Under the pieces are notes generated by a model. It saw nothing but the letters and a program-made list of their open reading frames with translations, did no database searches and had not been told where the DNA came from. Position numbers and translations under genes: made by a program. From contig JAZNLE010000101.1 of the NCBI GenBank assembly GCA_045578885.1, positions 1 through 63,130 of the forward strand: 63,130 bases of DNA. The letters run 5' to 3'. This document shows, piece by piece, positions 6,687 through 62,877 of this stretch (the stretch's first letter is position 1; each line of letters starts with the position of its first letter). The stretch is from Acutalibacteraceae bacterium. Lineage in GTDB: Bacteria > Bacillota > Clostridia > Oscillospirales > Acutalibacteraceae.

Positions 6687-6880
6687 TTAAAAAACACGTC
6701 CTTTATGAAAATGTAATATATAGACATAATGTACTGATTATATTTTACACTTTCTCATTGAATTTTGCAAGTGTAATATTTAAAAAAGTTACAAATAAAT
6801 TACAATTTCCAAAATTTTGATAAACTATTGTGAAAATTATGTTAAAATTAAGCGTATTTTGGAAAGGCTGTGACTAAATT

Positions 6881-8389: not shown

Positions 8390-8881
8390 ATGAACAAAAT
8401 CTACATTCTCCCTCGCAAAACCGACGCTTACGGTTTTGTGAAACAAATCGCCTTCGAAAAATACAATATTGATTTTTCCGCTCTCGAAATCGGGCGAAGT
8501 GAACACGGCAAGCCGTATTTTAAAGCCATACCCGATTTTTACTTCAACATTTCCCATTCAAGCGATTTGCTTGCAATAGTTGTAAGTGACAGCGACGTCG
8601 GAATTGATATCGAAAAACTGCGCACCATGGATACGCGCATAGCAAAACGCTTTTGCGCCGATGAGCAGACTTATATAACCGAAGCAGATTCCCAAAACCG
8701 TCTTTTCGAAGTATGGACAAAAAAAGAAGCCTGTCTAAAATACAAAGGCACAGGACTTTCGGGCGGTCTTGATACCTTTAGTGTTTTTGAGTTTTACCCT
8801 TCGCCCCTATCATATACATTTGGCGAATATTTCATATCAGTTTGCGGCCAAGAAGAATTTGAACTGATTATCAAAGTATAA
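8390..8881 (+). CDS. 4'-phosphopantetheinyl transferase, Sfp-type (short form)
   Basis: Motifs GKPYF, FNISHSSDLLAIVVS, VGIDIE and WTKKEACLKYKGTGL. Confidence 0.75.
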   Translation: MNKIYILPRKTDAYGFVKQIAFEKYNIDFSALEIGRSEHGKPYFKAIPDFYFNISHSSDLLAIVVSDSDVGIDIEKLRTMDTRIAKRFCADEQTYITEADSQNRLFEVWTKKEACLKYKGTGLSGGLDTFSVFEFYPSPLSYTFGEYFISVCGQEEFELIIKV

Positions 8882-8883
8882 AA

Positions 8884-8916
8884 GCACCTACTTTTTTACA
8901 AAGTAAGTGCTTTTTG
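8884..8916. terminator. Hairpin between the convergent PPTase and transglutaminase genes
   Basis: GCACCTACT-loop-AGTAAGTGC with flanking T/A runs on both strands. Confidence 0.45.
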
Positions 8917-47206: not shown

Positions 47207-47455
47207 TTATTCTTTGATAGATTCCTTAATTTTCGCAAGCTTTTCAGCTTTATTTCCGCAGTCCGAAAGGTCAATACCTTTTTCCTTTGCAAAAGCTTCA
47301 AGCTCTTCGAGCTTCATTTTGTCGAGGTTTATACCTTCGGTCTGGTCGGTTGTAGCGCTCACAACCTTATATCCTAAATCTTCGAGCATTCCCTTTTCAC
47401 GCTCGGTTTCTACAGTTTTCACAATATTGCCGTATTTGTTTTTTAAAGTAAACAT
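47207..47455 (-). CDS. Small head-associated protein with a HeH/SAP-like motif
   Basis: 82 aa. It has LDKMKLEELEAFAKEKGIDLS and RBS AGGAGG. It follows the capsid gene. Confidence 0.45.
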   Translation of the reverse strand: MFTLKNKYGNIVKTVETEREKGMLEDLGYKVVSATTDQTEGINLDKMKLEELEAFAKEKGIDLSDCGNKAEKLAKIKESIKE

Positions 47456-47484
47456 ATTTTACCTCCTATAATATCCGCTCCCTC

Positions 47485-47538
47485 AGGCTCCCTTGTGTAA
47501 AGGGAGCTAGCAAAACCGCAAGGTTTTGACTGAGGGAT
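47485..47538 (+). repeat. Two-hairpin intergenic element, copy A
   Basis: AGGCTCCCTT-gtgta-AAGGGAGCT ag CAAAACC-GCAA-GGTTTTG ac TGAGGGAT. It lies between the capsid stop and the next start. Confidence 0.8.
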
Positions 47539-47545
47539 TGTCAGA

Positions 47546-48439
47546 CTACGCCGAAACTGCCGCTGCAATAAAGTTAAGATTGCTCTTCTTTACCAATACG
47601 TCATAGTAAACGCGGTAATCAAACTTATAAGCATCGGCATCCTGGTTTGTATCAGGTTCAAATACACGGATTTTTTCGCTCTTCTTAACAAGAGAAGCTG
47701 CTTTCTTAGGAAGAATAAGCATACCAATATTCTTAGCCGCATCAGTTGGTTTAAGGCCGCCGTTATCAGCATCATCAGTATATTCAGTCTTCATTCTGTC
47801 AGCTGTTACAGGAATAAGAACAACATCGTTAATCTTTTTAACCTTGAGATTAACTTCACCCTGTTTAAAATCGCTAACAGTAATAAGCTTCTGAATTTCG
47901 CTTGAATTCATAAACGCAGCGTAAACATCGGGGTCTACAAACGCAACAAGTTCGGTATCAAAACCAGCCTTTGCCTGAACGTCGTTTACAATTTCAACAA
48001 ACTGTGCAAAAACTTTCGAGATATCAAGAGTTTTTGTATTTTGCTTTTCGATAGCAATTTTTGCAAGTTTGGATAAAGTATAGGCATCCATTTCAGGAAC
48101 AACCTTTGTGCGAACATATTCGCCCATAATTTGTCCTGCCAAATTAGCAATGCCTGTTTCGTCCATATCTTCGCGGTCAATCTGCAAAGAACGTGCGCGG
48201 TCCTGAGTAAGCTCATAAGAAGTATGAGCAACTGTCATCTTACCTTTTGAGAAACCGTTATCACGGTCATAGTCAGCAAGACCGACAAAATCAATGTCGG
48301 GAATAATTACGGTTTTTGCGCCTACAAATTTAGCGCGAAGAAGGTTATCGGCAAAGAAACCGGTAACCGCCTTTTGTACAATCATTTTGTCAAGTTCACC
48401 CGCGAACTTAGTAGCAAATTCTAAAGTGTTTAAAGCCAT
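47546..48439 (-). CDS. Major capsid protein
   Basis: 297 aa with a strong RBS. It follows the scaffold gene. The N-terminal MALNTLEFATKF... and overall composition resemble podovirus/P22-like coat families. Confidence 0.65.
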   Translation of the reverse strand: MALNTLEFATKFAGELDKMIVQKAVTGFFADNLLRAKFVGAKTVIIPDIDFVGLADYDRDNGFSKGKMTVAHTSYELTQDRARSLQIDREDMDETGIANLAGQIMGEYVRTKVVPEMDAYTLSKLAKIAIEKQNTKTLDISKVFAQFVEIVNDVQAKAGFDTELVAFVDPDVYAAFMNSSEIQKLITVSDFKQGEVNLKVKKINDVVLIPVTADRMKTEYTDDADNGGLKPTDAAKNIGMLILPKKAASLVKKSEKIRVFEPDTNQDADAYKFDYRVYYDVLVKKSNLNFIAAAVSA

Positions 48440-48468
48440 TTTAATTTCTCCTTAAATAAATTTTTGTT

Positions 48469-49269
48469 TTAGTTCCAAAGACCCGCAAGTAAAGCGCTTG
48501 TTTGAGGGTTGCTGTCCTCTTTTTCACTCGCCATACTGCCGGTAGATTTTTTCGCCGCCGCCTCTTGTGAAGCCTTTGCGGCCGCAATTTTCTTGTTTTC
48601 ATTGTGCATATACTTGAGATATGCGTGGGACAACGAAAGTCCGCCGAACGCCGCTCTCTTTACTTCTTCAGGAAGGTCCTTAAACTCGGTAAGCTCGGGG
48701 AAGTCGCCGTTTTTCATTTCGACAAACTCATTCGCCAACCGTTCATTTATGGTCTGTTCTTCCTGTTCAGCTGCAGCCTTGCGGTCTGCCTTTGCGTTAT
48801 CAAGTGTTTTTTGTTTGTTAATGCCGTAAAGTTCCATCATTTTATTGATGGTATCCTCGTCATCACCAAACTTTTCAATAAGACCTTGACGGTATGCCTC
48901 GTCCTGTGCGGTCTCGATACCGCTTAAAAATTCCTTGACAGTCTGCCCTTTAAGTGTTGCAACACGTTCCAAGGTATCGTATGTACTCTGATAGTGAATA
49001 CCTTTCTGTGCAAGCGTTACCGCTTCATCACGCGATAAACCTCTCTTTTCGTGGTTGTACTGAATTTCAAGGAATGGCGCAACTTCCGGGGCGGGATTAT
49101 CTCCGCCGTTATTGTTTCCGTCCTGGTTCTGTGCGGAAGTATTATCATCGTTTTGCTCCGTCTGTGGTGCAGTTTCGGGCGCTACATTTGTTTCTACCTC
49201 CTGTTGTGTCTCCGCTTCTGTTGGTGTGGTATCCAACTCCTGCGCGTTCTGAACGTTATTTTCGTCCAT
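48469..49269 (-). CDS. Scaffolding protein
   Basis: 266 aa. It has an acidic low-complexity N-terminus and a helical body, and lies immediately upstream of the capsid gene. Confidence 0.6.
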   Translation of the reverse strand: MDENNVQNAQELDTTPTEAETQQEVETNVAPETAPQTEQNDDNTSAQNQDGNNNGGDNPAPEVAPFLEIQYNHEKRGLSRDEAVTLAQKGIHYQSTYDTLERVATLKGQTVKEFLSGIETAQDEAYRQGLIEKFGDDEDTINKMMELYGINKQKTLDNAKADRKAAAEQEEQTINERLANEFVEMKNGDFPELTEFKDLPEEVKRAAFGGLSLSHAYLKYMHNENKKIAAAKASQEAAAKKSTGSMASEKEDSNPQTSALLAGLWN

Positions 49270-49414
49270 ATCATTTACTCCTTTTCTGGCTATGGTGAGC
49301 CATTATTTTATTTACAAACAAAAAAGACCGAAACAGGACCGCTCTCGGAATATCATTCTTGCTCCCACTAAAATAAACTCCGCGCTGTCCTTTTCCGCTC
49401 TCTTCTGAAATGTA

Positions 49415-49636
49415 TTAAATTGTGTCTTGTGGATTGCCGTTATAATTCCAAAAGTTTTCTTCGTATCGTCTTTGTTGTTCTACTTGTCTTTGCTGTTCTT
49501 GGGATAACGGTTTTGGTTGTACTTTTGGTCTTTTGGGCTTTTTCTTTCGAGTACCAAGAGAAAACCCTTTACCAAACCAAAAACCGCCCACAAAGGCAAT
49601 AAAACAAAATAAAATACCATTTAAAACTAATTGCAT
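49415..49636 (-). CDS. Small membrane protein with basic/Gln-rich tail
   Basis: One TM (LVLNGILFCFIAFVGGFWFG). It lies between terL and the scaffold gene. Confidence 0.4.
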   Translation of the reverse strand: MQLVLNGILFCFIAFVGGFWFGKGFSLGTRKKKPKRPKVQPKPLSQEQQRQVEQQRRYEENFWNYNGNPQDTI

Positions 49637-49674
49637 ATACATTCACCTCTTCACTCTTAACTATTCACTTGAGG

Positions 49675-51012
49675 TCAACTCCACCCGCCGTTCATATCTT
49701 CAGCTGTAATATTACTTCTATCCACCCGAACTTTTGTCTTTTCTTTTTGCGGATGGAAGAATATAACATCATAAAAAGCATATCTAAAGGCATCCATCAA
49801 GTGATTATCCGTATCAATAGGCTTGTTAATGCCGTTTTCGTTCTTGTCCTTTTGCCAACAGTAAGAGCCAAGCTCTTTTATAGTGTTTTCACAGCGCGGG
49901 TGAACATAGATTTTATACTCCTGAATCTGCGCTATGCCGTTTATAATACTGTCCTTACCTTTAACTGAAGGCAATATCCTGCCAATCCCGAGCCTTCGAA
50001 GGTCTTCGTTCGACTTAGGCTCTGCGCAGTCAGCGCGGATGCGTTCTTTATTGTAGCCTTTTCTCCTTATCATAGCGGCGATATCACTGTTTAGCATCTT
50101 TGTTTCATAATGCTCGTCATAAATAAAGATTTCTTTATCAACCTTGTTTACCGCAAAAGCAATAAAAGCTGTTGGGTCGTTGGTGTAACCATAGTCTAGA
50201 CCGAAGAAAGACTTGTATTTCCAACTATCATCGGTCACAATCTCGCCTTTTTCATCACGCTCGATACCAAGCTCATTTATATTGAACTCAAGCACCTGCC
50301 ATTTTTCGAATACAAGACCTTCGGCAATACCCCATTCACCAAGCCCTGCGACCGTATATTTGCGGTAGTTTTCATTTTTCATACGCTCGAATACGGCGCG
50401 GTCGGTATTGTCTAAAAACTCATTGCACAAATAATTGGTTGAAAATGTGCTCACATTATCGTGTTCGGTATCGAAAAAGCGCTTTTTCAGCCAATGGGTT
50501 TCACTCCAAGGGTTAAAGGTTATGGTTGTTTGCTTAAAAAGACTGTCAGGCACATTACCACGCGGTACCGAAAGGTCAAGCTTATCAAAATCCGCTTCGC
50601 TTTCTATCTCAAAAGCTTCCTCTATCCAAACGAAATTAAGATAACCTTTTGAAACGGTAGTCGAAGCGAGCTTCAGAACATCGTCAAAACCGCGAAAGAG
50701 TATCTTTTGCCCTGTCGGTTTATATGTCATTTCCATAGGACTTACATTGTTTTGCCACAAGTGATTTACTCCAAGCTTCTCCTGAGCCCATTTAAGTTGT
50801 GCAAAGGTACTGTCGCGGTTGGTATTCATAACCCTGCGCACAACAAGTAGATTGCTTTCAGGGTACCGCATAAGCCGATAGATATGATTTAAGGCGGTAG
50901 TAGCTGATTTCTTGCTACCTTTACCGCCCTTTAAAACTCTATATCTTTTTGTATCGCGCCAAAACTCACCGTAACCGCTCCCGATTATGTCGGGCAAATG
51001 CAGTTTCTTCAT
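49675..51012 (-). CDS. Terminase large subunit (PBSX-like family)
   Basis: 445 aa. Walker A-like VLKGGKGSKKS, the FVWIEEA Walker B/coupling motif, and C-terminal nuclease Asp residues. It overlaps the terS stop. Confidence 0.85.
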   Translation of the reverse strand: MKKLHLPDIIGSGYGEFWRDTKRYRVLKGGKGSKKSATTALNHIYRLMRYPESNLLVVRRVMNTNRDSTFAQLKWAQEKLGVNHLWQNNVSPMEMTYKPTGQKILFRGFDDVLKLASTTVSKGYLNFVWIEEAFEIESEADFDKLDLSVPRGNVPDSLFKQTTITFNPWSETHWLKKRFFDTEHDNVSTFSTNYLCNEFLDNTDRAVFERMKNENYRKYTVAGLGEWGIAEGLVFEKWQVLEFNINELGIERDEKGEIVTDDSWKYKSFFGLDYGYTNDPTAFIAFAVNKVDKEIFIYDEHYETKMLNSDIAAMIRRKGYNKERIRADCAEPKSNEDLRRLGIGRILPSVKGKDSIINGIAQIQEYKIYVHPRCENTIKELGSYCWQKDKNENGINKPIDTDNHLMDAFRYAFYDVIFFHPQKEKTKVRVDRSNITAEDMNGGWS

Positions 51013-51386
51013 TTTGGAATATCTTCCTCACCGGTGAAAATCACAACATTGTTGGTATTGACATTTGAATCCTTTTGAATTTTACCCTTAACCTCCAAAA
51101 GCATTCGTATAGCTTCCATATTACCTTGCTCAACCTTCTTGCCAATCTCTTTCCAAGCCTTAGGAATAATACTCGTGGTATAGTGCTCAACAAGACAATT
51201 AACATACCCCATAAACTGCATATCGTTCTGCCAATTATAAAAGGTCGTTCTCGAAATATTGAAATCTTTACACAGTTCAGTTATATTCCTTACGTCGTCA
51301 GGGTCCACAAGCGCCTCTGCCACTTGCCTTTGCTTAGTTTTTAGGTTTGGGTACATTCCTTTTAAAGTGTTCACTTTTGTCAACAT
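51009..51386 (-). CDS. Terminase small subunit (HTH type)
   Basis: 125 aa. The HTH is ITELCKDFNISRTTFYNWQ. It lies directly upstream of terL. Confidence 0.7.
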   Translation of the reverse strand: MLTKVNTLKGMYPNLKTKQRQVAEALVDPDDVRNITELCKDFNISRTTFYNWQNDMQFMGYVNCLVEHYTTSIIPKAWKEIGKKVEQGNMEAIRMLLEVKGKIQKDSNVNTNNVVIFTGEEDIPK

Positions 51387-51411
51387 TTCTCACTCCCTTA
51401 TTATTTAGAGT

Positions 51412-51445
51412 CTCGCGCATGTGCGCACACACGCCTATGCGCGAG
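51412..51445. repeat. GC-rich nested palindrome upstream of terS (pac/cos or regulatory candidate)
   Basis: CTCGCGCAT-GTGCGCAC-acacgcct-ATGCGCGAG in an otherwise AT-rich 345-bp non-coding stretch. Confidence 0.6.
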
Positions 51446-51455
51446 CAATTTCAAT

Positions 51456-51488
51456 AATTCCGAATTACGAATTCCGCATTCCGAATTA
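51456..51488. repeat. Cluster of AATTC-N-GAATT-type repeats (first copy of the 18-mer AATTCCGAATTACGAATT)
   Basis: AATTCCGAATTACGAATTCCGCATTCCGAATTA. The 18-mer recurs exactly at 51716-51733. Confidence 0.7.
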
Positions 51489-51659
51489 TCTTTCTCCACC
51501 TACCCGCCTCACCGGTTTCTCCTTTGCCGGCACAAAATAAAAAATCAGACAGTTCGGTACCTTTAAACCGCTTGCCTGATTTTTTACAATATCATTTTAT
51601 CACAAAACAAATGCCAAATGTTCCGCTCTTTTTCCGCTTTTACATCATTTCCATCTGCA

Positions 51660-51710
51660 AGGCTCCTTCTCCGAGGGAGCTGTCGAACGCAAAGCGTTTG
51701 ACTGAGGGAG
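51660..51710 (+). repeat. Two-hairpin intergenic element, copy B
   Basis: AGGCTCCTTC-tcc-GAGGGAGCT g TCGAACGC-AAA-GCGTTTGA c TGAGGGAG. Confidence 0.8.
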
Positions 51711-51715
51711 TAATC

Positions 51716-51733
51716 AATTCCGAATTACGAATT
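51716..51733. repeat. Second exact copy of AATTCCGAATTACGAATT
   Basis: Identical to 51456-51473. It overlaps the stop codon of the late-regulator gene. Confidence 0.7.
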
Positions 51734-52166
51734 AAATTTCCACCGTCCCATACATAGCAATAGTAAACTTCCGAAGAGCAATATCCTTGATTTCATAAAG
51801 CCTTGTTTTTTCAAGGTAAAATCTTTCGCACAGCCGTTCCACATGGTTGTCCGACTTCTCAAAATAAAAGCCTTCAAGGACTTGCCGCTCTCGTTTGTCG
51901 AGTGTGTCAAGTCCTTTTTCTGTGAGTTTAACTAAGTCTTCGGCAATCTTAAGGCTCGAAGCTAAACGCTCACGCTCCGATATGTTGTCGAGCATCTTCT
52001 CTTCCTGACGAGACATACCGCCCATGACGGGCGTGTCGGTAGAAATTCCGCGCAAGGAAGTAAACTGTTCTTCCAAAACCTTTATCCGCTCTCGGATATT
52101 CTCAATCGACTCTTTCCGCTGCGGATATGTACGCAAATCGTTAACTGCTTCCTTTTTCCAGTTCAA
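51732..52166 (-). CDS. Phage late-gene transcriptional activator, sigma-70 region-4-like (ArpU/RinA-like)
   Basis: The C-terminal LDKRERQVLEGFYFEKSDNHVERLCERFYLEKTRLYEIKDIALRKF resembles a region 4 HTH. It lies just upstream of terS. The TTG at 52166 has AAGAGGTG upstream. The longer track ORF reads through repeat copy F. Confidence 0.55.
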   Translation of the reverse strand: MNWKKEAVNDLRTYPQRKESIENIRERIKVLEEQFTSLRGISTDTPVMGGMSRQEEKMLDNISERERLASSLKIAEDLVKLTEKGLDTLDKRERQVLEGFYFEKSDNHVERLCERFYLEKTRLYEIKDIALRKFTIAMYGTVEI

Positions 52167-52191
52167 TACTTTCACCTCTTTTACATCAATT

Positions 52192-52512
52192 TCATTTAAA
52201 AGCCTTCTCCAGCGGGAGTAGGGGGACCGCTTGCGGTGGATGAGGTGCGTTCCTTTCAAAACTCCCACCGTTCCTTATGACAATTTTATTTAACCTGAGC
52301 TTGTCTACAAACTCACCGTATGTATAACTTGTCCCGTACTTGCGGTTATGCTTTTTAATAATTGCCATCATTTCCATTACAGAGATAAGTTGTTTTGCTT
52401 TCGGCTTACTTGTTACCTTGTGGCTTTTGCAGTCACCACAAAGCTTTTTGTTACCTTTTTTAGTTTCAAACATCGCTCCACAGTTTTGACACCTTTTAAG
52501 CATTATCCTCAC
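52192..52512 (-). CDS. Zinc-ribbon protein, unknown function
   Basis: CQNCG...CGDC at the N-terminus. The 3' end of the ORF is a translation of degenerate repeat copy F, so the true C-terminus is uncertain. Confidence 0.45.
   Translation of the reverse strand: MRIMLKRCQNCGAMFETKKGNKKLCGDCKSHKVTSKPKAKQLISVMEMMAIIKKHNRKYGTSYTYGEFVDKLRLNKIVIRNGGSFERNAPHPPQAVPLLPLEKAFK
52200..52248 (+). repeat. Degenerate relative of the two-hairpin element (copy F)
   Basis: AGCCTTCTCC-agc-GGGAGTA ... ACCG-CTTG-CGGT gga TGAGGTG. It has the same order and orientation as copies A-E but weakened stems. Confidence 0.3.
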
Positions 52513-52972
52513 CCACCAATTCTTTTAAGAGGTCTTCCAAATCTTTTTTAAAAAGTATTTCCAAATCTTGATAAATTCTAAATCGTTCACATAGCAAACT
52601 TACAAACTCGGTGATAGCTTCGGCTTTTAGGTTATCGCAAAATTCCAACCATTCTTCAAGAGAACTTGCAAATACAAGCATATTTTCAACTCGTATGTGT
52701 GAATTAAACTCCGCAATTTTATCTTCAAAAGGTTTCAACCTCTCATTCTCTGCTTCCAAAGAAGTTAAATTGGTTTTCAAAGAAGTTAAATCAGAAGTCA
52801 AATTTGAGTTCTTCGTTTCAAGGCGGTTGATTAGGTCAAGGGCATTGTTAATAACTTTTGCAAGTTCTTCATCTTCTCGACCACAATAAACACACTCACG
52901 GTTTTCTAAATGAATTTTTAAATCCTTTACAATCTCGTTATCGGTTGGTTTTTTATCGGGCATTGTTGTCAC
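52496..52972 (-). CDS. Coiled-coil protein, unknown function
   Basis: 158-aa ORF with heptad-like LTSDLTSLKTNLTSLEAENERL. It overlaps its neighbours. Confidence 0.45.
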   Translation of the reverse strand: MTTMPDKKPTDNEIVKDLKIHLENRECVYCGREDEELAKVINNALDLINRLETKNSNLTSDLTSLKTNLTSLEAENERLKPFEDKIAEFNSHIRVENMLVFASSLEEWLEFCDNLKAEAITEFVSLLCERFRIYQDLEILFKKDLEDLLKELVGEDNA

Positions 52973-53159
52973 CTCTCACATCTCTAAAATAAGGGCAAGA
53001 TAAACAGTATTCCGTACGATACGCGGGTGATTTTTTACCCGCACACATACCAAAAACCGCTATTAGCTTACTTTCCATATTGTCATAACAACGATTGTAA
53101 AATATTTTTGTTCTAATTTTTTCTATATATCTTTTAATTTTATCGAGCATTGTTATCAC
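52953..53159 (-). CDS. Small Cys-containing protein, unknown function
   Basis: 68 aa. The GTG start overlaps the upstream TGA (GTGA). Confidence 0.4.
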   Translation of the reverse strand: MITMLDKIKRYIEKIRTKIFYNRCYDNMESKLIAVFGMCAGKKSPAYRTEYCLSCPYFRDVRGDNNAR

Positions 53160-53311
53160 CGCCTTTCGTTAATTGGTAGCACTAAAGGAATAAATCTTTT
53201 ATTCCACACTAAAGCCAAACCGTTCTTTAGTCCTTTGTACCCTGCATATATGCGTTTTATTTTAGGAATTTTCTTTGCGTAATTAGTTTTATAAACTTTA
53301 AATAATTTCAT
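53156..53311 (-). CDS. Small basic protein (51 aa), unknown function; not in the ORF track
   Basis: ATG preceded by GGAGTGTGAGGGG. MKLFKVYKTNYAKKIPKIKRIYAGYKGLKNGLALVWNKRFIPLVLPINERR. Start and stop are coupled to neighbours. Confidence 0.3.
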   Translation of the reverse strand: MKLFKVYKTNYAKKIPKIKRIYAGYKGLKNGLALVWNKRFIPLVLPINERR

Positions 53312-53472
53312 TTCCCCTCACACTCCTTTTTTATTGGTTGATAATCTTCACAATGGTTAAAACAATACGATTGAAACACTTGCTCTCCTGTTCTGTCGCA
53401 AATACATTTGTTTTTCCCGCTTTTGCTCAAATACCCCAAGCCCTGAAATCTGCATTTTCTATGTTGTGCCAT
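53308..53472 (-). CDS. Small Cys-rich protein (54 aa), unknown function; not in the ORF track
   Basis: ATG preceded by GGAGG at 9 nt. MAQHRKCRFQGLGYLSKSGKNKCICDRTGEQVFQSYCFNHCEDYQPIKKECEGK. ATGA overlap with the next ORF. Confidence 0.3.
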   Translation of the reverse strand: MAQHRKCRFQGLGYLSKSGKNKCICDRTGEQVFQSYCFNHCEDYQPIKKECEGK

Positions 53473-53851
53473 TGTTTAACTCCTCCAACTTTTCTTCTGC
53501 TTCCTCTTTGGTGAGGAATAAATTTCCGTTTAACCAATCATTCATAAAACACCAATCAAACTCTTTAACTTGAAGCATTAAATTCATTTTTGGTTTTTTT
53601 CTTTCTACTATTTTTAAAATGCCTTGTTTAAGTTCTTTTGTTTCTATGTAATTTTCATAATTTTTGTCCCAATATGTTTCGCATATATAATACACCGTAT
53701 TCCCCACCTTACAAGGCGGCACGATAACACCATTTGCTAACAGGTAGTCGGCAATTTTTTCAATTACCATTCTTTCGGACATTTGCAAAATGGGGTTATC
53801 GGGTTTTTTAAAGTTCACTAATAAATCTATAAGCCTATCTCTATCAATCAC
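53459..53851 (-). CDS. Hypothetical phage protein
   Basis: 130-aa ORF in the early/middle operon. No motif recognised. Confidence 0.45.
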   Translation of the reverse strand: MIDRDRLIDLLVNFKKPDNPILQMSERMVIEKIADYLLANGVIVPPCKVGNTVYYICETYWDKNYENYIETKELKQGILKIVERKKPKMNLMLQVKEFDWCFMNDWLNGNLFLTKEEAEEKLEELNNGTT

Positions 53852-53863
53852 TATTCACACCTC

Positions 53864-54001
53864 CTAAAACGTCACACAAATATTAAGCACTGCTGCAGCG
53901 AGCCAATAAACCGCCATTTTAAAATCTTGCGTTACGGCATACACCACCGCCGCGCCAATGTTTAAAATAATTAATATCAAAGGGAATATGTATTTACTCA
54001 T
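53864..54001 (-). CDS. Small membrane protein (45 aa)
   Basis: MSKYIFPLILIILNIGAAVVYAV...WLAAAVLNICVTF has two TM segments. The ATG is embedded in the upstream stop region. Confidence 0.35.
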   Translation of the reverse strand: MSKYIFPLILIILNIGAAVVYAVTQDFKMAVYWLAAAVLNICVTF

Positions 54002-54233
54002 TATTAGCACCACACTTACAACAATATTTTTCGGGTAGTGTTTCAGGCTCCGCTTCACAGTAAGTAAACCCGCATTTTGAACAAGTATATTCAACAGCAA
54101 TCTCTCTGTCATTCGGAATCCATCTTCCATATTTTTGTTCTCTTCTCAAAGCTGTACCGCCGCCAATGATTAATCCCATTACTAAACCAAGAAAAACCGC
54201 CAAAAGCAGTATTAACTCAGCCATTACAATCAC
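53994..54233 (-). CDS. Membrane-anchored zinc-ribbon protein
   Basis: N-terminal TM, then CSKCG...CCKCG. Confidence 0.45.
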   Translation of the reverse strand: MIVMAELILLLAVFLGLVMGLIIGGGTALRREQKYGRWIPNDREIAVEYTCSKCGFTYCEAEPETLPEKYCCKCGANNE

Positions 54234-54627
54234 CTCCTGTCAACGACTCCGGATTGTCATGTATGTTACCGATAACTTCATACACCGCACACTCGTTGAA
54301 CAAATAAACACTATTGTAGGGGTTTTGCGGTTCAATAAAGAAACATGTCTCTTCATATACGATTTTACCGGTTATGCCGTTGTAAAAAGGACTGCCGAAA
54401 ACATCATCCTGTGCTTTTACAATATCTCCTTCAAAAATCCGCGTGCCATTCTTATCGGTCAAACCGGTATATTGGCCAACGGTGTTTTTATCTACTTCAA
54501 TAAAACTGCCACTTTTAAACTCACCAAGCGAAACGAAAGTTCTATTAACACCGGGATAGAAAAGCAAGCTGCCTTGTACCCACTGCTTGTTATCTTTTCG
54601 TTTCGCTCTAAATAATATTTCTCTCAT
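54217..54627 (-). CDS. YopX-family phage protein
   Basis: MREILFRAKRKDNKQWVQG...GQYTGLTDKNGTRIFEGDIV...EVIGNIHDNPE is the classic YopX pattern. The start is set at ATG 54627. Confidence 0.75.
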   Translation of the reverse strand: MREILFRAKRKDNKQWVQGSLLFYPGVNRTFVSLGEFKSGSFIEVDKNTVGQYTGLTDKNGTRIFEGDIVKAQDDVFGSPFYNGITGKIVYEETCFFIEPQNPYNSVYLFNECAVYEVIGNIHDNPESLTGGDCNG

Positions 54628-54629
54628 AA

Positions 54630-54962
54630 TCAATTTTCCTTCCGTTCGCCATCCATTTTTGCACTGCAATAAGGACAATAATCATATTCATTTTCGTCTA
54701 TATATCCTTTGCTACAATCGATTACAGAATCGCAATGGGAACAGGTTATAAATTTTTTGTTATGTTCTGGGAAAGAATCGACCTTCCACTCAGCGTGCAC
54801 AACCTCAACCACATTGGCAGAACGTATCATACCAACCGCTCCCTGAATCAATAAAATATCGTCCACAGGGTCAAGCGTTTTTTGTCCGTCTTCAATTGCA
54901 CCCTTGCCGTAGTTTTTTATAACTTCAATTACCTTACTGCGTTCTATATATTCCTTACTCAT
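54630..54962 (-). CDS. Zinc-ribbon protein, unknown function
   Basis: CSHCD...CPYC near the C-terminus. ATG 54962 has GGAGG 8 nt upstream (the track ORF starts at 54983). Confidence 0.45.
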   Translation of the reverse strand: MSKEYIERSKVIEVIKNYGKGAIEDGQKTLDPVDDILLIQGAVGMIRSANVVEVVHAEWKVDSFPEHNKKFITCSHCDSVIDCSKGYIDENEYDYCPYCSAKMDGERKEN

Positions 54963-55068
54963 CACTTCGTCCTCCAAACCCATACTGCAAAAGCGATAAG
55001 GGCAATAATTATTAAAATATGCTTTGTTTCCATATCAACCTGACCTTTAAAATCAATTTTTATCTACT

Positions 55069-55126
55069 AGGCTCCTTCTGATGAGGGAGCTGTCAGCGAA
55101 GCTGACTGAGGGAGAGACCCTATATA
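55069..55126 (+). repeat. Two-hairpin intergenic element, copy C (downstream flank of rep)
   Basis: AGGCTCCTTC-tgat-GAGGGAGCT GTCAGC-GAA-GCTGAC TGAGGGAGAGACCCTATAT. The tail is identical to copy D over 22 nt. Confidence 0.8.
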
Positions 55127-55170
55127 GTGCCAACGGCACACCGAACCTCTTCACTCTTCACTGCGAAGCA

Positions 55171-56079
55171 TCACCCACCGCCTTCCAATTCCGCCTTGGA
55201 AACAATCTCGCCTTCGGGACAACATTCTTTCCAGAAATTATTGCGAATCCATTCGCGGTTTTTCCTCTTGAAATATTTAATAGCCTCGCTGCCGTAAAGC
55301 CGTTTATGGTTCTCGTCATAACAATGGAAATCGGGCGGAAGTTTTATCATTCGATAAAACAAATACGGTCGCCCCGTCACAGGGTTACACCCCGCACGAA
55401 TACTATCGGTATCGATGTGATAACCCTCGCGAGCAACAGGCGGCTCTTTCCACTTGATTTTGTGGATTTTTTTAGGCGGTTCTTCATAAGACTTACGCAA
55501 ATTACGGCTTCCAATCCACTTCTTGATATATCCGTCAGTCTCTTGATACATCGGCTGTTTGACTATGTATGCCGCAAGCGAAGAATATTCACCGGTATCA
55601 TACATCGCTCTGCAGTCAGGCGGCCGAGCATCGCGTGTAGCCTTAATATGCTCTTTCCAAAGAATAGTAATCTCTTTAAACTTTTCACCCTGCGGTAATA
55701 TAACGTGGTGGTGAATGCCACCACGTTCACCGTAGGCGGTACGCTTTATGTATTTAAACTCAATTCCCCATTCGGCATATAACTTTCTTAACTTCCGAAG
55801 GAAAGCACTCAGCTGAGCCGTAGCCTTTTCATAATCTTGTGGCCTGTTATGGTTTTCATAATGGAATGTTACAAACCAATCGTCAGGAATAAAGTTTTCA
55901 TTGATAAGTCGTGTCAATTTTCTAATTGCAAGTTCTTCGTTATAGGCCTGCATAGCTTCAGGTGTACTTTCACTACGCTTCCTTCGTGTAAGGCCATCTC
56001 CAAACCTTGTAGGGTAGGTATTTTCGACTTCTATCGTATTACCCGCCTTTATTATTCGTTGTCTATATACAGGTTTCAT
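55171..56079 (-). CDS. HUH-superfamily rolling-circle replication initiator (Rep)
   Basis: Motif I WFVTFHY, motif II (HUH) GGIHHHVILP, motif III Tyr SLAAYIVKQ. 302 aa, RBS GAGGT. Confidence 0.65.
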   Translation of the reverse strand: MKPVYRQRIIKAGNTIEVENTYPTRFGDGLTRRKRSESTPEAMQAYNEELAIRKLTRLINENFIPDDWFVTFHYENHNRPQDYEKATAQLSAFLRKLRKLYAEWGIEFKYIKRTAYGERGGIHHHVILPQGEKFKEITILWKEHIKATRDARPPDCRAMYDTGEYSSLAAYIVKQPMYQETDGYIKKWIGSRNLRKSYEEPPKKIHKIKWKEPPVAREGYHIDTDSIRAGCNPVTGRPYLFYRMIKLPPDFHCYDENHKRLYGSEAIKYFKRKNREWIRNNFWKECCPEGEIVSKAELEGGG

Positions 56080-56179
56080 TTTTTACCTCAAAAATTTCCG
56101 TTAGTTAATACTTCTTATCAAGCGCTAAATCGGTAATTATACCGATTTTTGCATTTTCTTAATTTCAGTTTTTTATCCA

Positions 56180-56243
56180 AGGCTCCCTCTGATTGAGGGA
56201 GCTGGATTTTGCGAAGCAAAAGACTGAGGGAGAGACCCTATAT
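56180..56243 (+). repeat. Two-hairpin intergenic element, copy D (upstream flank of rep)
   Basis: AGGCTCCCTC-tgatt-GAGGGAGCT gga TTTTGC-GAA-GCAAAA ga CTGAGGGAGAGACCCTATAT. The tail overlaps the stop of the upstream gene. Confidence 0.8.
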
Positions 56244-56702
56244 CGCGCCCCACCTCTCGTCCCATTTTGATGTATCTCCGCCATTTAAAGCAGCTTGAGC
56301 GTATTCGTCGGCATCCTGTTCCCACTTTAAAAGGTCTTCTTTTAAAGCGACAGCCAAATACATAACTTCATATACAGGCTCATCACTGTACCGTGGAAAC
56401 TCCTTTTTAAACTGAACCAAAGCTTTTTTATACCGAATTTTAAAATCGTATGTATACTCGTCATAAATACCTTCTTCGATACATCGGTTCAGAATAGCCT
56501 TGGTGTATCTCCAGTCCGCACCTTTACAAGCTGTCACATCAATAGCCTTTATAATAAGGTCAGGCTTGGCGCCGTGGTCAAGGTAATATCCTATATCGTC
56601 TATCACAAATCTCGACAACAAGCGCCCCATTATTTCTTCATAAGCGCGAGCCACTTTACCTATAGCCTGTCCGCGTTCTCCGCTCAACTCTGTTGGTGTC
56701 AA
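56238..56702 (-). CDS. DnaD-domain-like replication protein
   Basis: LIIKAIDVTACKGADWRYTKAILNRCIEEGI resembles the DnaD/DnaB_2 C-terminal domain. The TTG start overlaps the upstream stop. Confidence 0.5.
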   Translation of the reverse strand: MTPTELSGERGQAIGKVARAYEEIMGRLLSRFVIDDIGYYLDHGAKPDLIIKAIDVTACKGADWRYTKAILNRCIEEGIYDEYTYDFKIRYKKALVQFKKEFPRYSDEPVYEVMYLAVALKEDLLKWEQDADEYAQAALNGGDTSKWDERWGAI

Positions 56703-56914
56703 GACGATTTCCCCTCTATACCGAGAATAGCGCGCACATTTATAGGCTTGCGCAATTGCCTACAGTTTGTCCCGTCGACAAAGTGATGGCTAAAGTGCTT
56801 ACAACCGTATCGCTCTTTATTACGGCACTCATATCCCGAATAATTTGCATTACGGTCAGGCAGTTCCGCTCCCGTCTTTATACACTTACACATCACTATC
56901 ACCGGGCGAATCAA
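56699..56914 (-). CDS. Small Cys/His-rich protein, unknown function
   Basis: 71-aa ORF (CKCIKTG...YECRNKERYGCKHFSHH) coupled to both neighbours. Support is weak. Confidence 0.35.
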   Translation of the reverse strand: MIRPVIVMCKCIKTGAELPDRNANYSGYECRNKERYGCKHFSHHFVDGTNCRQLRKPINVRAILGIEGKSS

Positions 56915-57257
56915 TTTCAGGTTTTGTTTTTGTTAGATATTCGATAATAGCGCTCTTGCTATCACCCGAAGGATTATACAGTTTATACGCTGTATCGGAA
57001 TAACCCGTATCAAACTTATCCTTTTCAGCCAATATTAGATGGTACCTTACCGCCGTACTTTTTTCGTACACGAAACGGTGTTGAGGTGTATAGTCGGCAA
57101 ACTTAATACACGCATACTCAGTCGCAATAATCACCGTGCCATTAGGGAATACATAACGGTAAAATTTAAGTTCGAGTTCGGGAACTTCCTTCCAAAGCTT
57201 CCAATCCTTATAATTTTCTAAAAAGCGCTCACGCTCTGCTTTATTTTTTAATTGCAT
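56886..57257 (-). CDS. Hypothetical phage protein
   Basis: About 123-aa ORF. The second ATG has GAGGAG at 7 nt. Confidence 0.45.
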   Translation of the reverse strand: MQLKNKAERERFLENYKDWKLWKEVPELELKFYRYVFPNGTVIIATEYACIKFADYTPQHRFVYEKSTAVRYHLILAEKDKFDTGYSDTAYKLYNPSGDSKSAIIEYLTKTKPEIDSPGDSDV

Positions 57258-57291
57258 TTTCATTCTCCTCTAAATTGTTTTTTCATTTTCG

Positions 57292-57343
57292 AGGCTCCCT
57301 TGCCTAAAGGGAGCTGGCTTGCCTTCAGGCAAGAGTGAGGGAT
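57292..57343 (+). repeat. Two-hairpin intergenic element, copy E
   Basis: AGGCTCCCTT-gccta-AAGGGAGCT gg CTTGCC-TTCA-GGCAAG ag TGAGGGAT. Confidence 0.8.
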
Positions 57344-57365
57344 TTACTTTTGTTTTTTAACTTCT

Positions 57366-61740: not shown

Positions 61741-62877
61741 ATGCTTTGCAGAAAATGTAAAAAAGAAATACCCGAAAATTCAATATACTGCAACTTTTGC
61801 GGCATAAAGCAAACCTTAGACCGCCCTTTTAAAAATCGCGGCAACGGTCAAGGCAGTGTATATAAAGAAAAAAACGGCAAATGGACTGCCGAAGTAACCT
61901 TAGGTTATGATAAAAAAGAACTACCGGATGGTACAATAAAGCTACTACGCAAAAGAACCACCAAGTCGGGATTTACTACAAAAAAAGAAGCAATAGAATA
62001 TTTACCACATTTAAGGCAATCTGTACCAACTATTAACCGCAATATAAAATTTAAGGACCATTACGAATCCTGGCTTGCTATTCATGAAAGAAAAGTTACA
62101 AACGACACAATAAACTGCTATAAAGCAGCTTTTAAATATTTTTCTTCCTTGCACTATGTCGAGATAGCAAAAATTCGCACCGAGCATCTGCAAAAATGTG
62201 TGGACGAATGTCCTAAGGGTACTCGTACCAAGAAAAATATGAAATCTCTTACAACGGCTCTTTGGCGATATGCAATACAAAACGATATTATTGACCGCAA
62301 CTATGCCGAATTTATTTATATCCCACCTGAAACAAAGACTGAAAAAACAGCATTCACAACCGAGCAAATAAATTCAATGTGGCAAAATGTCGACAAAATC
62401 CCTGAACTTAAATATGTGCTCATTCTAATATATACCGGTATGCGAATCGGTGAATTATTAAGTGCATTAACTGATAAATATAACGAAAAAGAACAATACT
62501 TTGTGACAGGTTCAAAAACAAAAGCGGGAAAAGACCGTATAATAACAATCTCTCCCCGCATACTTCCCTTTTTCAAGGATTTTGGTAAAGGCGAATATTT
62601 ATTTTTTGACAATAACAAAAAAGTAACTGAAAAATATTTTAGAAACAATATTTACTATTCCGCTCTCGCAAAAATTGGTTTAGACGTTATATTGGAAGAC
62701 GGAACCCATTTATACAACCCCCACTGTTGTAGACACACTTTTGCAACTATGATGAAAAATATCGATGCACCCGCTACCGACAAACAAAAACTTATCGGGC
62801 ACAGTAAATTTGAAATGACCGCATACTACACTCATACTGATATAGACTCTCTTAAGCAAATTACAGATAAGCTATAA
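61741..62877 (+). CDS. Tyrosine integrase with N-terminal zinc-ribbon
   Basis: CRKCK...CNFCG ribbon. Catalytic residues are in GMRIGELL, HCCRHTFAT and GHSKFEMTAYYTH. It is adjacent to the attR/tRNA-Pro junction. Confidence 0.9.
   Translation: MLCRKCKKEIPENSIYCNFCGIKQTLDRPFKNRGNGQGSVYKEKNGKWTAEVTLGYDKKELPDGTIKLLRKRTTKSGFTTKKEAIEYLPHLRQSVPTINRNIKFKDHYESWLAIHERKVTNDTINCYKAAFKYFSSLHYVEIAKIRTEHLQKCVDECPKGTRTKKNMKSLTTALWRYAIQNDIIDRNYAEFIYIPPETKTEKTAFTTEQINSMWQNVDKIPELKYVLILIYTGMRIGELLSALTDKYNEKEQYFVTGSKTKAGKDRIITISPRILPFFKDFGKGEYLFFDNNKKVTEKYFRNNIYYSALAKIGLDVILEDGTHLYNPHCCRHTFATMMKNIDAPATDKQKLIGHSKFEMTAYYTHTDIDSLKQITDKL

Follow-up and report, generated by a model that had tools for sequence, protein, structure and literature searches.

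What are the short structured repeats found between the genes of an Acutalibacteraceae prophage, and why would they be structured on the strand opposite to those genes? In the window, i.e., the whole stretch of 63,130 nt that was analysed, five copies (A to E) are located on the plus strand at 47485-47538, 51660-51710, 55069-55126, 56180-56243 and 57292-57343, within a region (42.5 to 60.1 kb) where all called genes are on the minus strand. The initial annotation placed five two-hairpin elements at these positions, all in one orientation and in gaps between minus-strand prophage genes, and this was borne out: a covariance model built from homologues gave exactly five matches in the 63-kb window, all on the plus strand, with E values from 3e-19 to 6e-14, and zero matches in its 25 kb of host DNA. 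The hairpin-1 pattern shows three exact occurrences versus 0.19 expected by chance. DNA folding predicted both hairpins in the five copies, and in all of them the plus strand was the more stable one. The view that these elements are other than intrinsic terminators was likewise sustained, given that a T-run 3' of the element is absent from the five window copies and that an Rfam search with the elements returned no matching family. A sixth, degenerate copy had been proposed at 52200-52248; this segment is undetected by the model, does not fold into the architecture and shares with copy B its 40-nt upstream flank (75% identical, family D7), and therefore it is at most a decayed relic.

The five repeats are members of a large, undescribed family present in phages of gut Clostridia, of which IMG/VR phage contigs and Oscillospirales genomes together yielded over 350 distinct copies. 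A pattern scan of IMG/VR retrieved at least 120 loci, and covariance-model searches of the listed loci gave 247 and 47 matches; among the matches listed from a scan of GTDB genomes, nearly all were in metagenome-assembled genomes of Oscillospiraceae, Acutalibacteraceae and other Clostridia. Counted against genes that have homology support, 104 copies were antisense and 8 were sense. Tandem expansions forming arrays of up to six copies also exist, as do inverted pairs, and contigs with arrays, L008 among them, can have copies facing either way. The element is present as well in late regions, for example 3' of the capsid gene.

Across homologues, changes on both sides of a pair were found in seven of the nine hairpin-1 pairs and in five of the six modelled hairpin-2 pairs, and hairpin 2 differs from copy to copy with its pairing kept in each. 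The tail TGAGGGA(G/T) had been regarded as conserved and single-stranded; it is conserved, but the second part does not stand, since its final base (T in copies A and E; G in B, C and D) co-varies with the inner pair of hairpin 1. It had been overlooked that the tail is the mirror image of the hairpin-1 purine arm, and that it co-varies with each hairpin-1 layer: a C-G pair takes G, T-A takes A or T, and G-C takes T. This layer-by-layer code is that of an antiparallel purine-motif triple helix, in which hairpin 2 would be the fold-back connector. The features of the copies are the following:

47486..47508, plus strand: copy A hairpin 1, pyrimidine arm GGCTCCCTT, loop GTGTA, purine arm AAGGGAGCT (sequence, model, DNA fold); the model match spans 47480-47545 (E 1.4e-14).
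47509..47530, plus strand: copy A hairpin 2, putative connector, AGCAAAACC-GCAA-GGTTTTGAC (sequence, DNA fold); its stem is AT-rich like its phage, and GC-rich stems occur in homologues of GC-rich phages.
47531..47539, plus strand: copy A putative third-strand tail TGAGGGATT, mirror of the purine arm (triplet count); 8 of 8 layers are canonical, T.C-G, G.G-C, A.A-T, three G.G-C, A.A-T and T.A-T.
51661..51681, plus strand: copy B hairpin 1, GGCTCCTTC, loop TCC, GAGGGAGCT, with a T.G wobble in layer 7 (sequence, model E 5.2e-15, DNA fold).
51682..51702, plus strand: copy B hairpin 2, GTCGAACGC-AAA-GCGTTTGAC (sequence, DNA fold).
51703..51711, plus strand: copy B putative third-strand tail TGAGGGAGT, layer 9 being C-G.G (triplet count).
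52200..52248, plus strand: possible decayed relic, not a functional member (no model match at E<=10; fold z = -0.41).
55070..55091, plus strand: copy C hairpin 1, GGCTCCTTC, loop TGAT, GAGGGAGCT (sequence, model E 3.1e-19, DNA fold).
55092..55106, plus strand: copy C hairpin 2, GTCAGC-GAA-GCTGAC, a C-GAA-G mini-hairpin (sequence, DNA fold).
55107..55115, plus strand: copy C putative third-strand tail TGAGGGAGA (triplet count).
56181..56203, plus strand: copy D hairpin 1, GGCTCCCTC, loop TGATT, GAGGGAGCT (sequence, model E 1.6e-14, DNA fold).
56204..56224, plus strand: copy D hairpin 2, GGATTTTGC-GAA-GCAAAAGAC, its base closed by G-C plus tandem G.A/A.G (sequence, DNA fold).
56225..56233, plus strand: copy D putative third-strand tail TGAGGGAGA (sequence, triplet count); on the other strand, the stop codon of a DnaD-like gene lies 5 nt beyond the tail core TGAGGGAG (56225-56232).
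57293..57315, plus strand: copy E hairpin 1, GGCTCCCTT, loop GCCTA, AAGGGAGCT (sequence, model E 6.4e-14, DNA fold).
57316..57335, plus strand: copy E hairpin 2, GGCTTGCC-TTCA-GGCAAGAG (sequence, DNA fold).
57336..57344, plus strand: copy E putative third-strand tail TGAGGGATT, layer 9 being T-A.T (triplet count).

Triplets were counted in 196 unique elements (IMG/VR and the window) and then in 181 further unique elements from genomes, and the scan placed no condition on the tail. In the first set, layer 2 is G-C.T in 139 elements, C-G.G in 39 and T-A.A in 2, layer 8 is T-A.A in 119 and C-G.G in 52, and the same kind of switch is seen more rarely in layers 4 to 7; since the retrieval pattern leaves little of the core free to vary, the variation in layers 2-8 comes only from extra copies in those loci. 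Layer 9, which the search pattern left unconstrained, is C-G.G in 89 elements and T-A.T in 83, and the eight possible combinations of the two main states of layers 2, 8 and 9 were all found. The mutual information between arm layers and tail in this set is 0.70, 0.55 and 0.75 bits on the diagonal versus 0.19 or less off the diagonal; the genome set replicated this result (0.75, 0.33 and 0.72 bits), and the observed value was reached in 0 of 2000 permutations. In the parallel relation, the 5' arm and the tail are 92.3% complementary, with 81 doubly changed cells and the best agreement at slide 0, a complementarity matched by 0 of 500 shuffles, although shuffle statistics overstate the significance because related sequences are not independent. 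Canonical purine-motif triplets account for 89-90% of the layers versus 74-75% with shuffled tails, and all eight layers are canonical in 123/196 and 127/181 elements; the pyrimidine-motif reading of the other strand is fully canonical in just 5/196 and 11/181. Approximately 10% of the layers are non-canonical, including an A that recurs opposite G-C where the tail faces four to five consecutive G, which we assume to be a bulge. In sum, the three conserved segments co-vary as they should in a small DNA triple helix with a mini-hairpin as its cap.

The strand that folds is antisense to the genes, as the annotation had argued from G.T wobbles, and the mismatch, loop and triplet counts agree on this point. 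In the large set, hairpin 2 shows 33 G.T versus 6 A.C and 82 G.A versus 1 C.T mismatches, and layers 4-8 of hairpin 1 contain 9 T.G pairs and no A.C. The hairpin-2 loops, of which 65-75% are triloops, include 94 GNA triloops versus 8 TNC, and 13 GNRA tetraloops versus none of the complement; GCGAAGC, previously noticed in two copies, was found in C and D. The tolerated G.T and G.A mismatches, the dominance of C-GNA-G triloops and the T.A-T and T.C-G layers favour an antisense-strand fold made of DNA over RNA. From the two options originally offered, single-stranded DNA is thus the better one and antisense RNA is disfavoured, since DNA-type mini-hairpin triloops dominate hairpin 2 and purine-motif triplexes are reported not to form in RNA (PMC4666352, citing Semerad and Maher). 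DNA mini-hairpins of the C-GNA-G type have a stability far above that of their RNA counterparts (PMC13037366).

Overall, the best explanation, and a probable one, is that these elements are cis-acting DNA intrastrand triplexes, formed by the strand that is antisense to those genes of the phage. When this strand is unpaired, hairpin 1 would arise from the pairing of the pyrimidine segment GGCTCCCTY with the purine segment RAGGGAGCT. Hairpin 2, a mini-hairpin of free sequence that usually has GTC...GAC at its base and a C-GNA-G triloop at its tip and that abuts both neighbouring segments directly, would reverse the chain direction, and the purine tail TGAGGGAK would then occupy the major groove of hairpin 1, running antiparallel to the purine arm. 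The product would be a reverse-Hoogsteen purine-motif triple helix of 7-8 layers (G.G-C, A.A-T, T.A-T and T.C-G), corresponding to the published class II intrastrand triplexes such as BoxC/PIT/TM_ECO, with a hairpin replacing the 3-nt second loop. If replication is co-directional with the genes, the strand left single would not be the folding one, which counts against this explanation, as do the array contigs with mixed orientations. TM_ECO forms a stable triplex in the isolated strand only, and the structure was not seen in duplex DNA or by in vivo DMS footprinting (PMC4666352).

The claim that the motif is unlike any described class stands with respect to Rfam but not in general, since the BoxC/PIT/TM_ECO intrastrand-triplex repeats of E. 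coli and other Proteobacteria (Hoyne et al. 2000; Holder et al. 2015, PMC4666352) are already described and are its closest known relatives. Both present on one strand a pyrimidine arm, a loop, a purine arm, a loop and a mirror-image purine third strand (class II purine motif), with a G/C-rich core of 8-9 layers and A/T interruptions; both are intergenic and multi-copy, lack promoter or terminator features, comprise two sequence types that pair in inverted configuration and are associated with local genome rearrangement. They differ in the core (CTCCCT/AGGGAG/GAGGGA in the phages versus CCCTCNCCC/GGGNGAGGG), in the second loop (a free-sequence hairpin of 13-45 nt versus 3 nt) and in the host DNA, i.e., Clostridia phages and prophages versus proteobacterial chromosomes; Holder et al. 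found no link between TM_ECO-type repeats and phages (PMC4666352). TM_ECO also shows no orientation bias and its copies are nearly identical, whereas here the copies differ inside one genome, and it was this variation that revealed the three-strand co-variation. The REP/BIME sequences of enterobacteria are also short structured intergenic repeats within operons, arranged singly, in tandem or inverted as mosaics of unit types. Nevertheless, a REP is a simple imperfect palindrome that has a GTAG head, is mobilised by RAYT transposases and is near-identical to the other REPs of its genome, whereas in the phage element the third strand co-varies, hairpin 2 changes between copies within a genome, and a RAYT was not seen. 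Canonical H-DNA has the same mirror symmetry of the purine segment and the same reverse-Hoogsteen triplet code. Its acceptor duplex is formed by the two complementary strands of a mirror-repeat homopurine-homopyrimidine tract; here, one strand supplies the three strands of the triplex and would therefore have to be unpaired, supercoiling of the DNA not being enough.

Hairpin 2 also resembles the mini-hairpins of the complementary-strand origins of phages G4/St-1/alpha3, RSF1010 ssiA and the N4 vRNAP promoters (GGA/GAA loops), where a short stem with a C-GNA-G triloop is a hallmark, binds SSB poorly and works only on a single strand, the N4 hairpin being on the template strand upstream of genes (PMC13037366). 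It is conceivable, if unlikely, that the elements are single-stranded DNA signals that start synthesis, either priming or primosome-assembly sites for complementary-strand synthesis (like G4 oric, RSF1010 ssiA or plasmid sso) or N4-type template-strand promoters. The triplex and the mini-hairpin would then mark the site and prevent SSB from covering it. Such a role fits the abundant GNA triloops and the strand-specific, multi-copy occurrence on the template strand; in 80 of 220 copies, moreover, a ribosome-binding site and a start codon follow no more than 40 nt downstream. The window phage is also consistent with it, as it encodes a DnaD-domain protein and, between copies C and D, a rolling-circle Rep. 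However, the known signals lack a triplex-forming tail, are few per genome and each have a known primase or polymerase of their own, whereas among the prophage proteins scanned neither a primase nor an RNA polymerase domain was found; if phiX174 and f1 are a guide, the sense strand and not the folding one should be displaced. Copy B lies 3' of a gene stop codon, and what comes next is an intrinsic terminator and not a gene; around copies A and E there is no space for a transcript to start separately, at a distance from the upstream gene, and the occurrence in late regions, e.g., after the capsid gene, is likewise unfavourable.

It is rather improbable that the element acts in the sense mRNA as an intercistronic two-hairpin processing site, stability element or partial terminator, even though it would account most simply for the 104:8 orientation bias and for a location between co-transcribed genes. 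In the capsid-gene relatives the element is absent, and five of the seven have an ordinary hairpin with a T-run at the same junction. Such an mRNA might hold a pyrimidine-motif triple helix via the C-rich UCCCUCA, a kind of triplex that does form in RNA (PMC4666352), and layers 3 to 8 fit C+.G-C and U.A-U equally well. Nevertheless, five of around eight layers, three of them contiguous, would require protonated cytosines, and the scarcity of fully canonical pyrimidine-motif elements speaks against it. Read on the sense strand, the tolerated mismatches become A.C (33) and C.U (82) and not G.U (6) and G.A (1), with UNC instead of GNA loops, the reverse of folded-RNA habits, and both a U-run and an Rfam match are absent.

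A polar obstacle to an enzyme unwinding the DNA from one side also has a low probability; such an element might be met by AddAB as a Chi-like or anti-exonuclease site on rolling-circle tails, make replication pause or block antisense transcription, with the purine strand folding upon displacement. The strict orientation suits it, inverted pairs would work in both directions, tandem arrays would strengthen the block, PIT elements block DNA polymerase in vitro (PMC4666352) and mini-hairpins are nuclease-resistant (PMC13037366). This reading is, however, purely inferential, no in vivo effect of PIT elements was found in E. coli (PMC4666352), and the prophage end facing convergent host transcription has no element, all five copies being within 47-57 kb. 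Finally, a small antisense RNA, or a portion of a long antisense transcript, with two hairpins and a purine tail, is very improbable: it would come from the folded strand, its G.U and G.A mismatches and GNRA loops are typical of RNA too and host genes left of the prophage are transcribed toward it, but a promoter scan found no enrichment at the copies, none is followed by a T-run, triloops at this frequency are unusual in RNA, arrays of up to six copies are unlike sRNA genes, and the mirror co-variation needs the purine-motif triplex that reportedly does not form in RNA (PMC4666352).

Returning to the DNA triplex, a survey of homology breakpoints bears on its role. The similarity with a relative ends cleanly at the element in 23 of 114 element sites, versus 16 of 238 other putative gene junctions and 0 of 126 sites located about 700 nt away; clean breakpoints are thus approximately three times commoner at elements than at other gene junctions, a ratio based on small numbers and crude junction calls, in a survey where 82 of 165 pairs were ambiguous. 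A boundary role is also in keeping with the lack of the element in the capsid-gene relatives and with the tandem expansions. As a tentative best guess, the element may promote recombination as a structure-prone linker where genes or modules meet; DNA transactions would stall or break at it while the DNA is transiently unwound, and its approximately 30 nt of shared sequence would allow recombining phages to exchange modules there. Since viable exchange products would need a uniform orientation relative to gene direction, the orientation bias could be explained without strand-specific biology. Whatever this role may be, the evolutionary evidence of co-variation suggests that a triplex-type structure is selected in living cells.

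The element present in five copies (A to E) on the plus strand of the window consists of a first hairpin with a pyrimidine arm, a loop and a purine arm (hairpin 1), a second hairpin that serves as connector (hairpin 2), and a purine tail.

Copies of the element in the window
47485-47538, plus strand, copy A
51660-51710, plus strand, copy B
55069-55126, plus strand, copy C
56180-56243, plus strand, copy D
57292-57343, plus strand, copy E

The initial annotation regarded the tail as single-stranded; instead, it co-varies with hairpin 1 in mirror register. The purine arm AGGGAGCT read in reverse is TCGAGGGA, to be compared with the tail (C)TGAGGGA. Diverged copies show joint changes of all three segments, from GGCTCC/GGAGCT/TGAGG to GCCTCC/GGAGGT/GGAGG and from CCCT/AGGG/GGGA to CCCC/GGGG/GGGG; likewise, the arms GCCCTCCTT/AAGGAGGGT accompany the tail GGGAGGATT, and the arms GCCTTCCTC/GAGGAAGGT the tail GGAAGGAG. 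Within the window, the change proposed earlier for the inner pair of hairpin 1 (T-A in copies A and E versus C-G in B, C and D) was recovered, and the tail carries T or G accordingly.

A scan that imposed no condition on the tail, and asked for hairpin 1 directly followed by a second hairpin, provided two independent sets: 196 unique elements from IMG/VR phage contigs and the window, and 181 further elements from genomes. In both sets the tail base at position L is predicted by the base pair at layer L of hairpin 1 (a layer being a pair plus the tail base that faces it), and by no other layer.

Mutual information between hairpin-1 base pair and tail base (IMG/VR plus window set; genome set)
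Layer 2: 0.70 bits; 0.75 bits
Layer 8: 0.55 bits; 0.33 bits
Layer 9: 0.75 bits; 0.72 bits
Off-diagonal: at most 0.19 bits; at most 0.21 bits

The pairing code that emerges is G facing C-G, A facing T-A (T at layer 9) and T facing G-C; G.G-C, A.A-T, T.A-T and T.C-G are all antiparallel purine-motif triplets (PMC4666352). Layer 9, which lies outside the constraint of the search pattern, shows C-G.G in 89 cases versus T-A.T in 83, with few exceptions. Layers 2, 8 and 9 each have two main states and all eight combinations are present; therefore, these layers changed independently. Among 107 distinct arm/arm/tail strings, the 5' arm and the tail are 92.3% complementary in register, with 81 doubly changed cells and a clear maximum at slide 0. 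This score was reached by 0 of 500 shuffles, canonical purine-motif triplets account for 89-90% of the layers versus 74-75% with shuffled tails, and the mutual information of the genome set was matched by 0 of 2000 permutations, although the sequences are related and statistics based on shuffling consequently overstate the significance. The non-canonical layers, about 10%, include an A that recurs opposite G-C where the tail faces long runs of G; we interpret this A as a bulge.

Two other arrangements of the tail were considered and rejected. Watson-Crick pairing with the 5' arm, as an alternative hairpin or a switch, does not agree with the variable layers, which co-vary in mirror and not in antiparallel register; the core AGGGA reads the same in both directions and so fits both registers. 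A three-way junction closed by TCCCTCA and TGAGGGA would need an upstream complement that is present in copy A only (47479-47485); CCCTCA is found downstream in some homologues and is lineage-specific. To our knowledge, mirror repeats cannot arise by templated copying and are not read by dimeric proteins; therefore, selection for a triplex is the only explanation that we can offer. As judged from these comparisons of sequence, the natural co-variation of three strands is evolutionary evidence that a DNA triplex is selected. Hairpin 2 joins hairpin 1 and the tail without any linker, so its closing pair can span from the purine strand to the third strand.

The plus strand, antisense to the genes, had been proposed as the strand that folds, and this is supported by the mismatches, the loops and the fit to the purine motif. 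The non-canonical pairs of hairpin 2 comprise 33 G.T and 82 G.A versus 6 A.C and 1 C.T. Its stems are mostly of 6-9 bp and 65-75% of its loops are triloops; GNA was found in 94 loops versus TNC in 8, and GNRA in 13 versus its complement in 0. In layers 4-8 of hairpin 1 there are nine T.G pairs and no A.C pair. As a purine motif, 123 elements of the 196 set and 127 of the 181 set are fully canonical, versus 5 and 11, respectively, as a pyrimidine motif of the complementary strand, because T.A-T and T.C-G would turn into A.A-U and A.C-G. Purine-motif triple helices have been reported not to form in RNA (PMC4666352), and mini-hairpins of the GCGNAGC type, which have a far greater stability in DNA than in RNA, are known in the single-stranded DNA signals of the G4, St-1 and alpha3 origins, ssiA and the N4 promoters (PMC13037366). 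For both reasons DNA is favoured over RNA, and we infer that the structure forms in DNA.

Homologues were retrieved with the pattern GGCTCC-N6-12-GGGAGCT-N14-32-TGAGGGA, which fixes most of the core. It occurs at no fewer than 120 loci in IMG/VR phage contigs, and the GTDB genomes listed with it are almost all Oscillospiraceae, Acutalibacteraceae, Ruminococcaceae and other Clostridia metagenome-assembled genomes from gut and rumen; in INPHARED only three contigs carry the element, all unannotated faecal phages. Covariance-model searches of the retrieved loci yielded 247 and 47 matches, many diverged copies among them. The consensus is GGCTCCCTY / RAGGGAGCT / TGAGGGAK. In the homologues hairpin 1 is 98% paired, with both-sided changes at 7 of 9 pairs, and hairpin 2 shows such changes at 5 of its 6 modelled pairs. 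The sequence and length of hairpin 2 are free (13-45 nt, with a stem of 5-16 bp) and its base composition follows that of the genome; the sequence of hairpin 1 and the tail is kept across contigs of about 40% to 70% G+C. Tandem or inverted pairs of differing sequence classes are common (GGCTCC with GCCTCC). In one phage contig (L071), arrays of three to six head-to-tail elements with a period of 66-67 nt lie between minus-strand genes at 1689-2079, 4465-4678 and 6446-6909, the largest having six copies; these belong to the variant GGCTCCCCC/GGGGGAGCT, whose tail is TGAGAGGG. Another contig (L008, at 2770-3120, 5820-6340 and 8800-9320) carries in both orientations a 159-nt composite repeat, seen also in L025, L062, L082 and L102, that combines the element with a second hairpin, GGGCGAT-GAAA-ATCGCCC. 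Its units form arrays of three to four between TerL, portal and the genes next in line; one unit is inverted and most are in sense orientation.

The five copies of the window were all found on the plus strand in gaps between minus-strand genes of a prophage that includes 42.5-60.1 kb, in which all the lytic genes are on the minus strand.

Prophage genes
31974-41192, minus strand, 3072-aa open reading frame of the virion module
47546-48439, minus strand, major head protein
55171-56079, minus strand, rolling-circle Rep
61741-62877, integrase, adjoining a tRNA

Further minus-strand prophage genes encode the portal, the large and small terminase, an ArpU/RinA-like regulator, YopX and a DnaD-domain protein. 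A covariance model made from the homologues detected these five copies and no others across the window, at E 3e-19 to 6e-14, and had 0 matches in its 25 kb of host DNA. It missed the sixth, "degenerate" copy of the initial annotation, which does not fold into the architecture; this stretch has a flank in common with copy B and may be a relic of an element. Among the five, hairpin 2 has a different, unrelated sequence in every copy, and hairpin 1 falls into three subtypes. The copies match no Rfam family: among the Rfam 15 families only tRNAs exceed the gathering threshold in the window, and at E<=10 the sole match overlapping a copy is a chance one to sR24 (19.7 bits versus a threshold of 36). 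The loop of hairpin 1 in copy C contains CUGAUGA, which resembles a hammerhead but lacks support from Rfam. Neither are they intrinsic terminators, since the gene-sense strand has no T-run after any of the five; a terminator scan of the plus strand picked up, among the copies, only the hairpin-2/tail region of copy E, and ordinary terminators occur elsewhere in the same prophage region.

Several features were noted close to the copies. Directly downstream of copy A, an 82-aa gene (47207-47455, minus strand) gives weak matches to PHROG families, among them an endonuclease VII family (E 1e-6); nucleases of this type are specific for branched DNA and, next to a structured DNA element, this gene is maybe worth a look. 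An inverted repeat, CTCGCGCAT...ATGCGCGAG, lies at 51412-51445, 25 nt upstream of the terS start, and encloses CGCGCATGTGCGCACACACGC, a Z-DNA-prone run of 21 nt of strictly alternating pyrimidines and purines; the similar AATTCGCGTGCGCGTGCGCGAATT follows an element in three phage loci (L002, L022 and L048). The inverted repeat could be a pac/cos site or part of a late control region. An exact 18-nt direct repeat, AATTCCGAATTACGAATT, at 51456-51473 and 51716-51733 (0.01 expected by chance), flanks a 242-nt segment with copy B and an intrinsic terminator, and a further copy with 2 mismatches is found at 51470-51487; these repeats could be a duplication scar or binding sites of a regulator.

The closest described class is that of the BoxC/PIT/TM_ECO intrastrand-triplex repeats (class II purine motif; PMC4666352), of which the phage element is not a member. 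Both have pyrimidine, purine and mirror-image purine (reverse-Hoogsteen) segments in this order on one strand, and sequence classes are paired here in inverted or tandem fashion as in TM_ECO types A and B (PMC4666352). However, the pattern of that class is CCCTCNCCC N3-6 GGGNGAGGG N3 GGGNGAGGG, which differs from our consensus, and only rare variants, e.g., GGCTCTCCC/GGGAGAGCT/TGAGAGGG, come near it. Its second loop has 3 nt, in contrast with the 13-45-nt hairpin of the phage element; it is chromosomal, with no link to phages and no strand bias, whereas the element is carried by phages and prophages and strongly oriented; and TM_ECO copies are near-identical, whereas those of the element diverge inside one genome. 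A published description of such an element in phages was not found. TM_ECO folds in vitro, but its triplex was undetected in duplex DNA or in vivo and a function was not found (PMC4666352). The REP/BIME repeats are near-identical palindromic units mobilised by RAYT proteins; the window copies differ from one another instead, and the only HUH protein near them is the rolling-circle Rep.

The orientation was assessed against genes with homology support, which encode terminases, portal, Rep, head and other structural proteins, and by a ribosome-binding site plus start codon, as strand inference from long open reading frames is useless in high-GC contigs. Relative to the former, 104 unique elements are antisense and 8 sense, with the contig family of L008 as the main exception; within 40 nt downstream, 80 of 220 copies have a ribosome-binding site and start codon on the gene strand, and 20 of 220 have them on the element's own strand. 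No association was seen between the hairpin-1 subtype and the family of the downstream gene. In the window, the copies lie 5-55 nt past the stop codon of the upstream gene and four of the five sit 28-100 nt ahead of the next start codon, from which it follows that the elements are transcribed within operons. Copy B is followed by an intrinsic terminator and then by the terS control region; therefore, it at least is no promoter. Around seven relatives of the capsid gene, which share 57-63% amino-acid identity, a 2.5-kb vicinity contains no element, and five of them have an ordinary hairpin and T-run at the same junction; the presence of the element is therefore sporadic.

Under looser criteria, tandem-array neighbours and partial similarity inflated the count of breakpoints of similarity, and a stringent version was used, in which one flank shows 75% or more identity in register across 150 nt or more, with similarity up to the site, and the other has zero detectable similarity. 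A partner with a clean breakpoint was found for 23 of 114 element sites (e.g., L011/L053, L014/L031, L017/L098 and L022/L116), 16 of 238 other putative gene junctions of the same contigs and 0 of 126 sites about 700 nt away, in a comparison of small numbers with crude junction calls and many ambiguous pairs. These counts are only suggestive of elements that mark mosaic junctions. A role as recombination linkers would fit the reported tie of TM_ECO to rearrangements (PMC4666352), the sporadic distribution, the arrays and the uniform orientation, which exchange among co-oriented modules would demand.

Among the rival explanations, a priming or promoter signal in single-stranded DNA agrees with hairpin 2, as the signals of G4 oric, ssiA and N4 carry, on the strand being read, a stem of 5-7 bp with a G-N-A loop of 3 nt. 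In its most specific form, the elements would be initiation sites that are encoded in DNA structure and read, as N4 promoters or ssi signals are, from the template strand once the DNA is unwound or extruded; extrusion would be locked by the triple helix, and the enzyme would recognise the GNA mini-hairpin. We regard this form as very unlikely. A polymerase or primase of these Clostridia phages that has so far escaped recognition could do the reading, and might conceivably reside in the orphan virion-type protein of 3072 aa; no primase or polymerase domain was found in the scanned prophage proteins. This protein matches PHROG 22978 (function unknown, a profile of 3513 positions) at E 1e-231, has two HExxH motifs, around residues 829 and 1378, and is without sequence matches in Pfam, NCBIfam and PDB; its C-terminal third, used as query in a locus search, gave no match. 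A reading as a virion RNA polymerase is not supported by its sequence, which has no DxDGD, T7-like or other polymerase motifs. No tape-measure, tube or sheath protein was recognised at 25-47 kb of the window, which suggests that the particle may be podovirus-like with this giant protein inside.

A double-stranded -35/-10 promoter made of two GAGGGAG boxes was discarded, as the distance between the boxes depends on how long hairpin 2 is and differs by more than 20 nt, and a promoter scan found no enrichment at the elements. Elements with the tail GAGGGAGAGA have a -10-like hexamer (TATATA, TAAAAT, TAGAAT or TTATAT) on the gene strand exactly 7 nt before TCCCTCAG, at 55116-55131 and 56234-56249 of the window and in L010, L060 and L015; it occurs in several AT-rich contigs, is absent from GC-rich ones and may have arisen by chance from base composition and stop codons. 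A link of the elements to the rolling-circle Rep gained no support: CTTGATA as its candidate nick site is too common to inform (31 copies in this genome), and a query with Rep found no close relatives. Further rivals are a polar barrier, a sense-mRNA element and an antisense RNA, the last of which would use the strand that folds.

The formation and relevance of intramolecular DNA triple helices in bacteria has been a long-standing question since H-DNA and PIT/BoxC. The phage family supplies what TM_ECO lacks, hundreds of diverged natural copies in which three strands change together and keep the reverse-Hoogsteen code, the type of evidence that established RNA secondary structures; this natural co-variation is its main value. 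It makes the triplex question testable with defined oligonucleotides, natural compensatory variants and the genetics of prophages of gut Clostridia. If the reading as initiation sites were true, it would represent a new encoding of promoters or origins spread over a large group of gut phages; and if the link to mosaic junctions holds, the elements would provide a physical basis for module exchange in this group.
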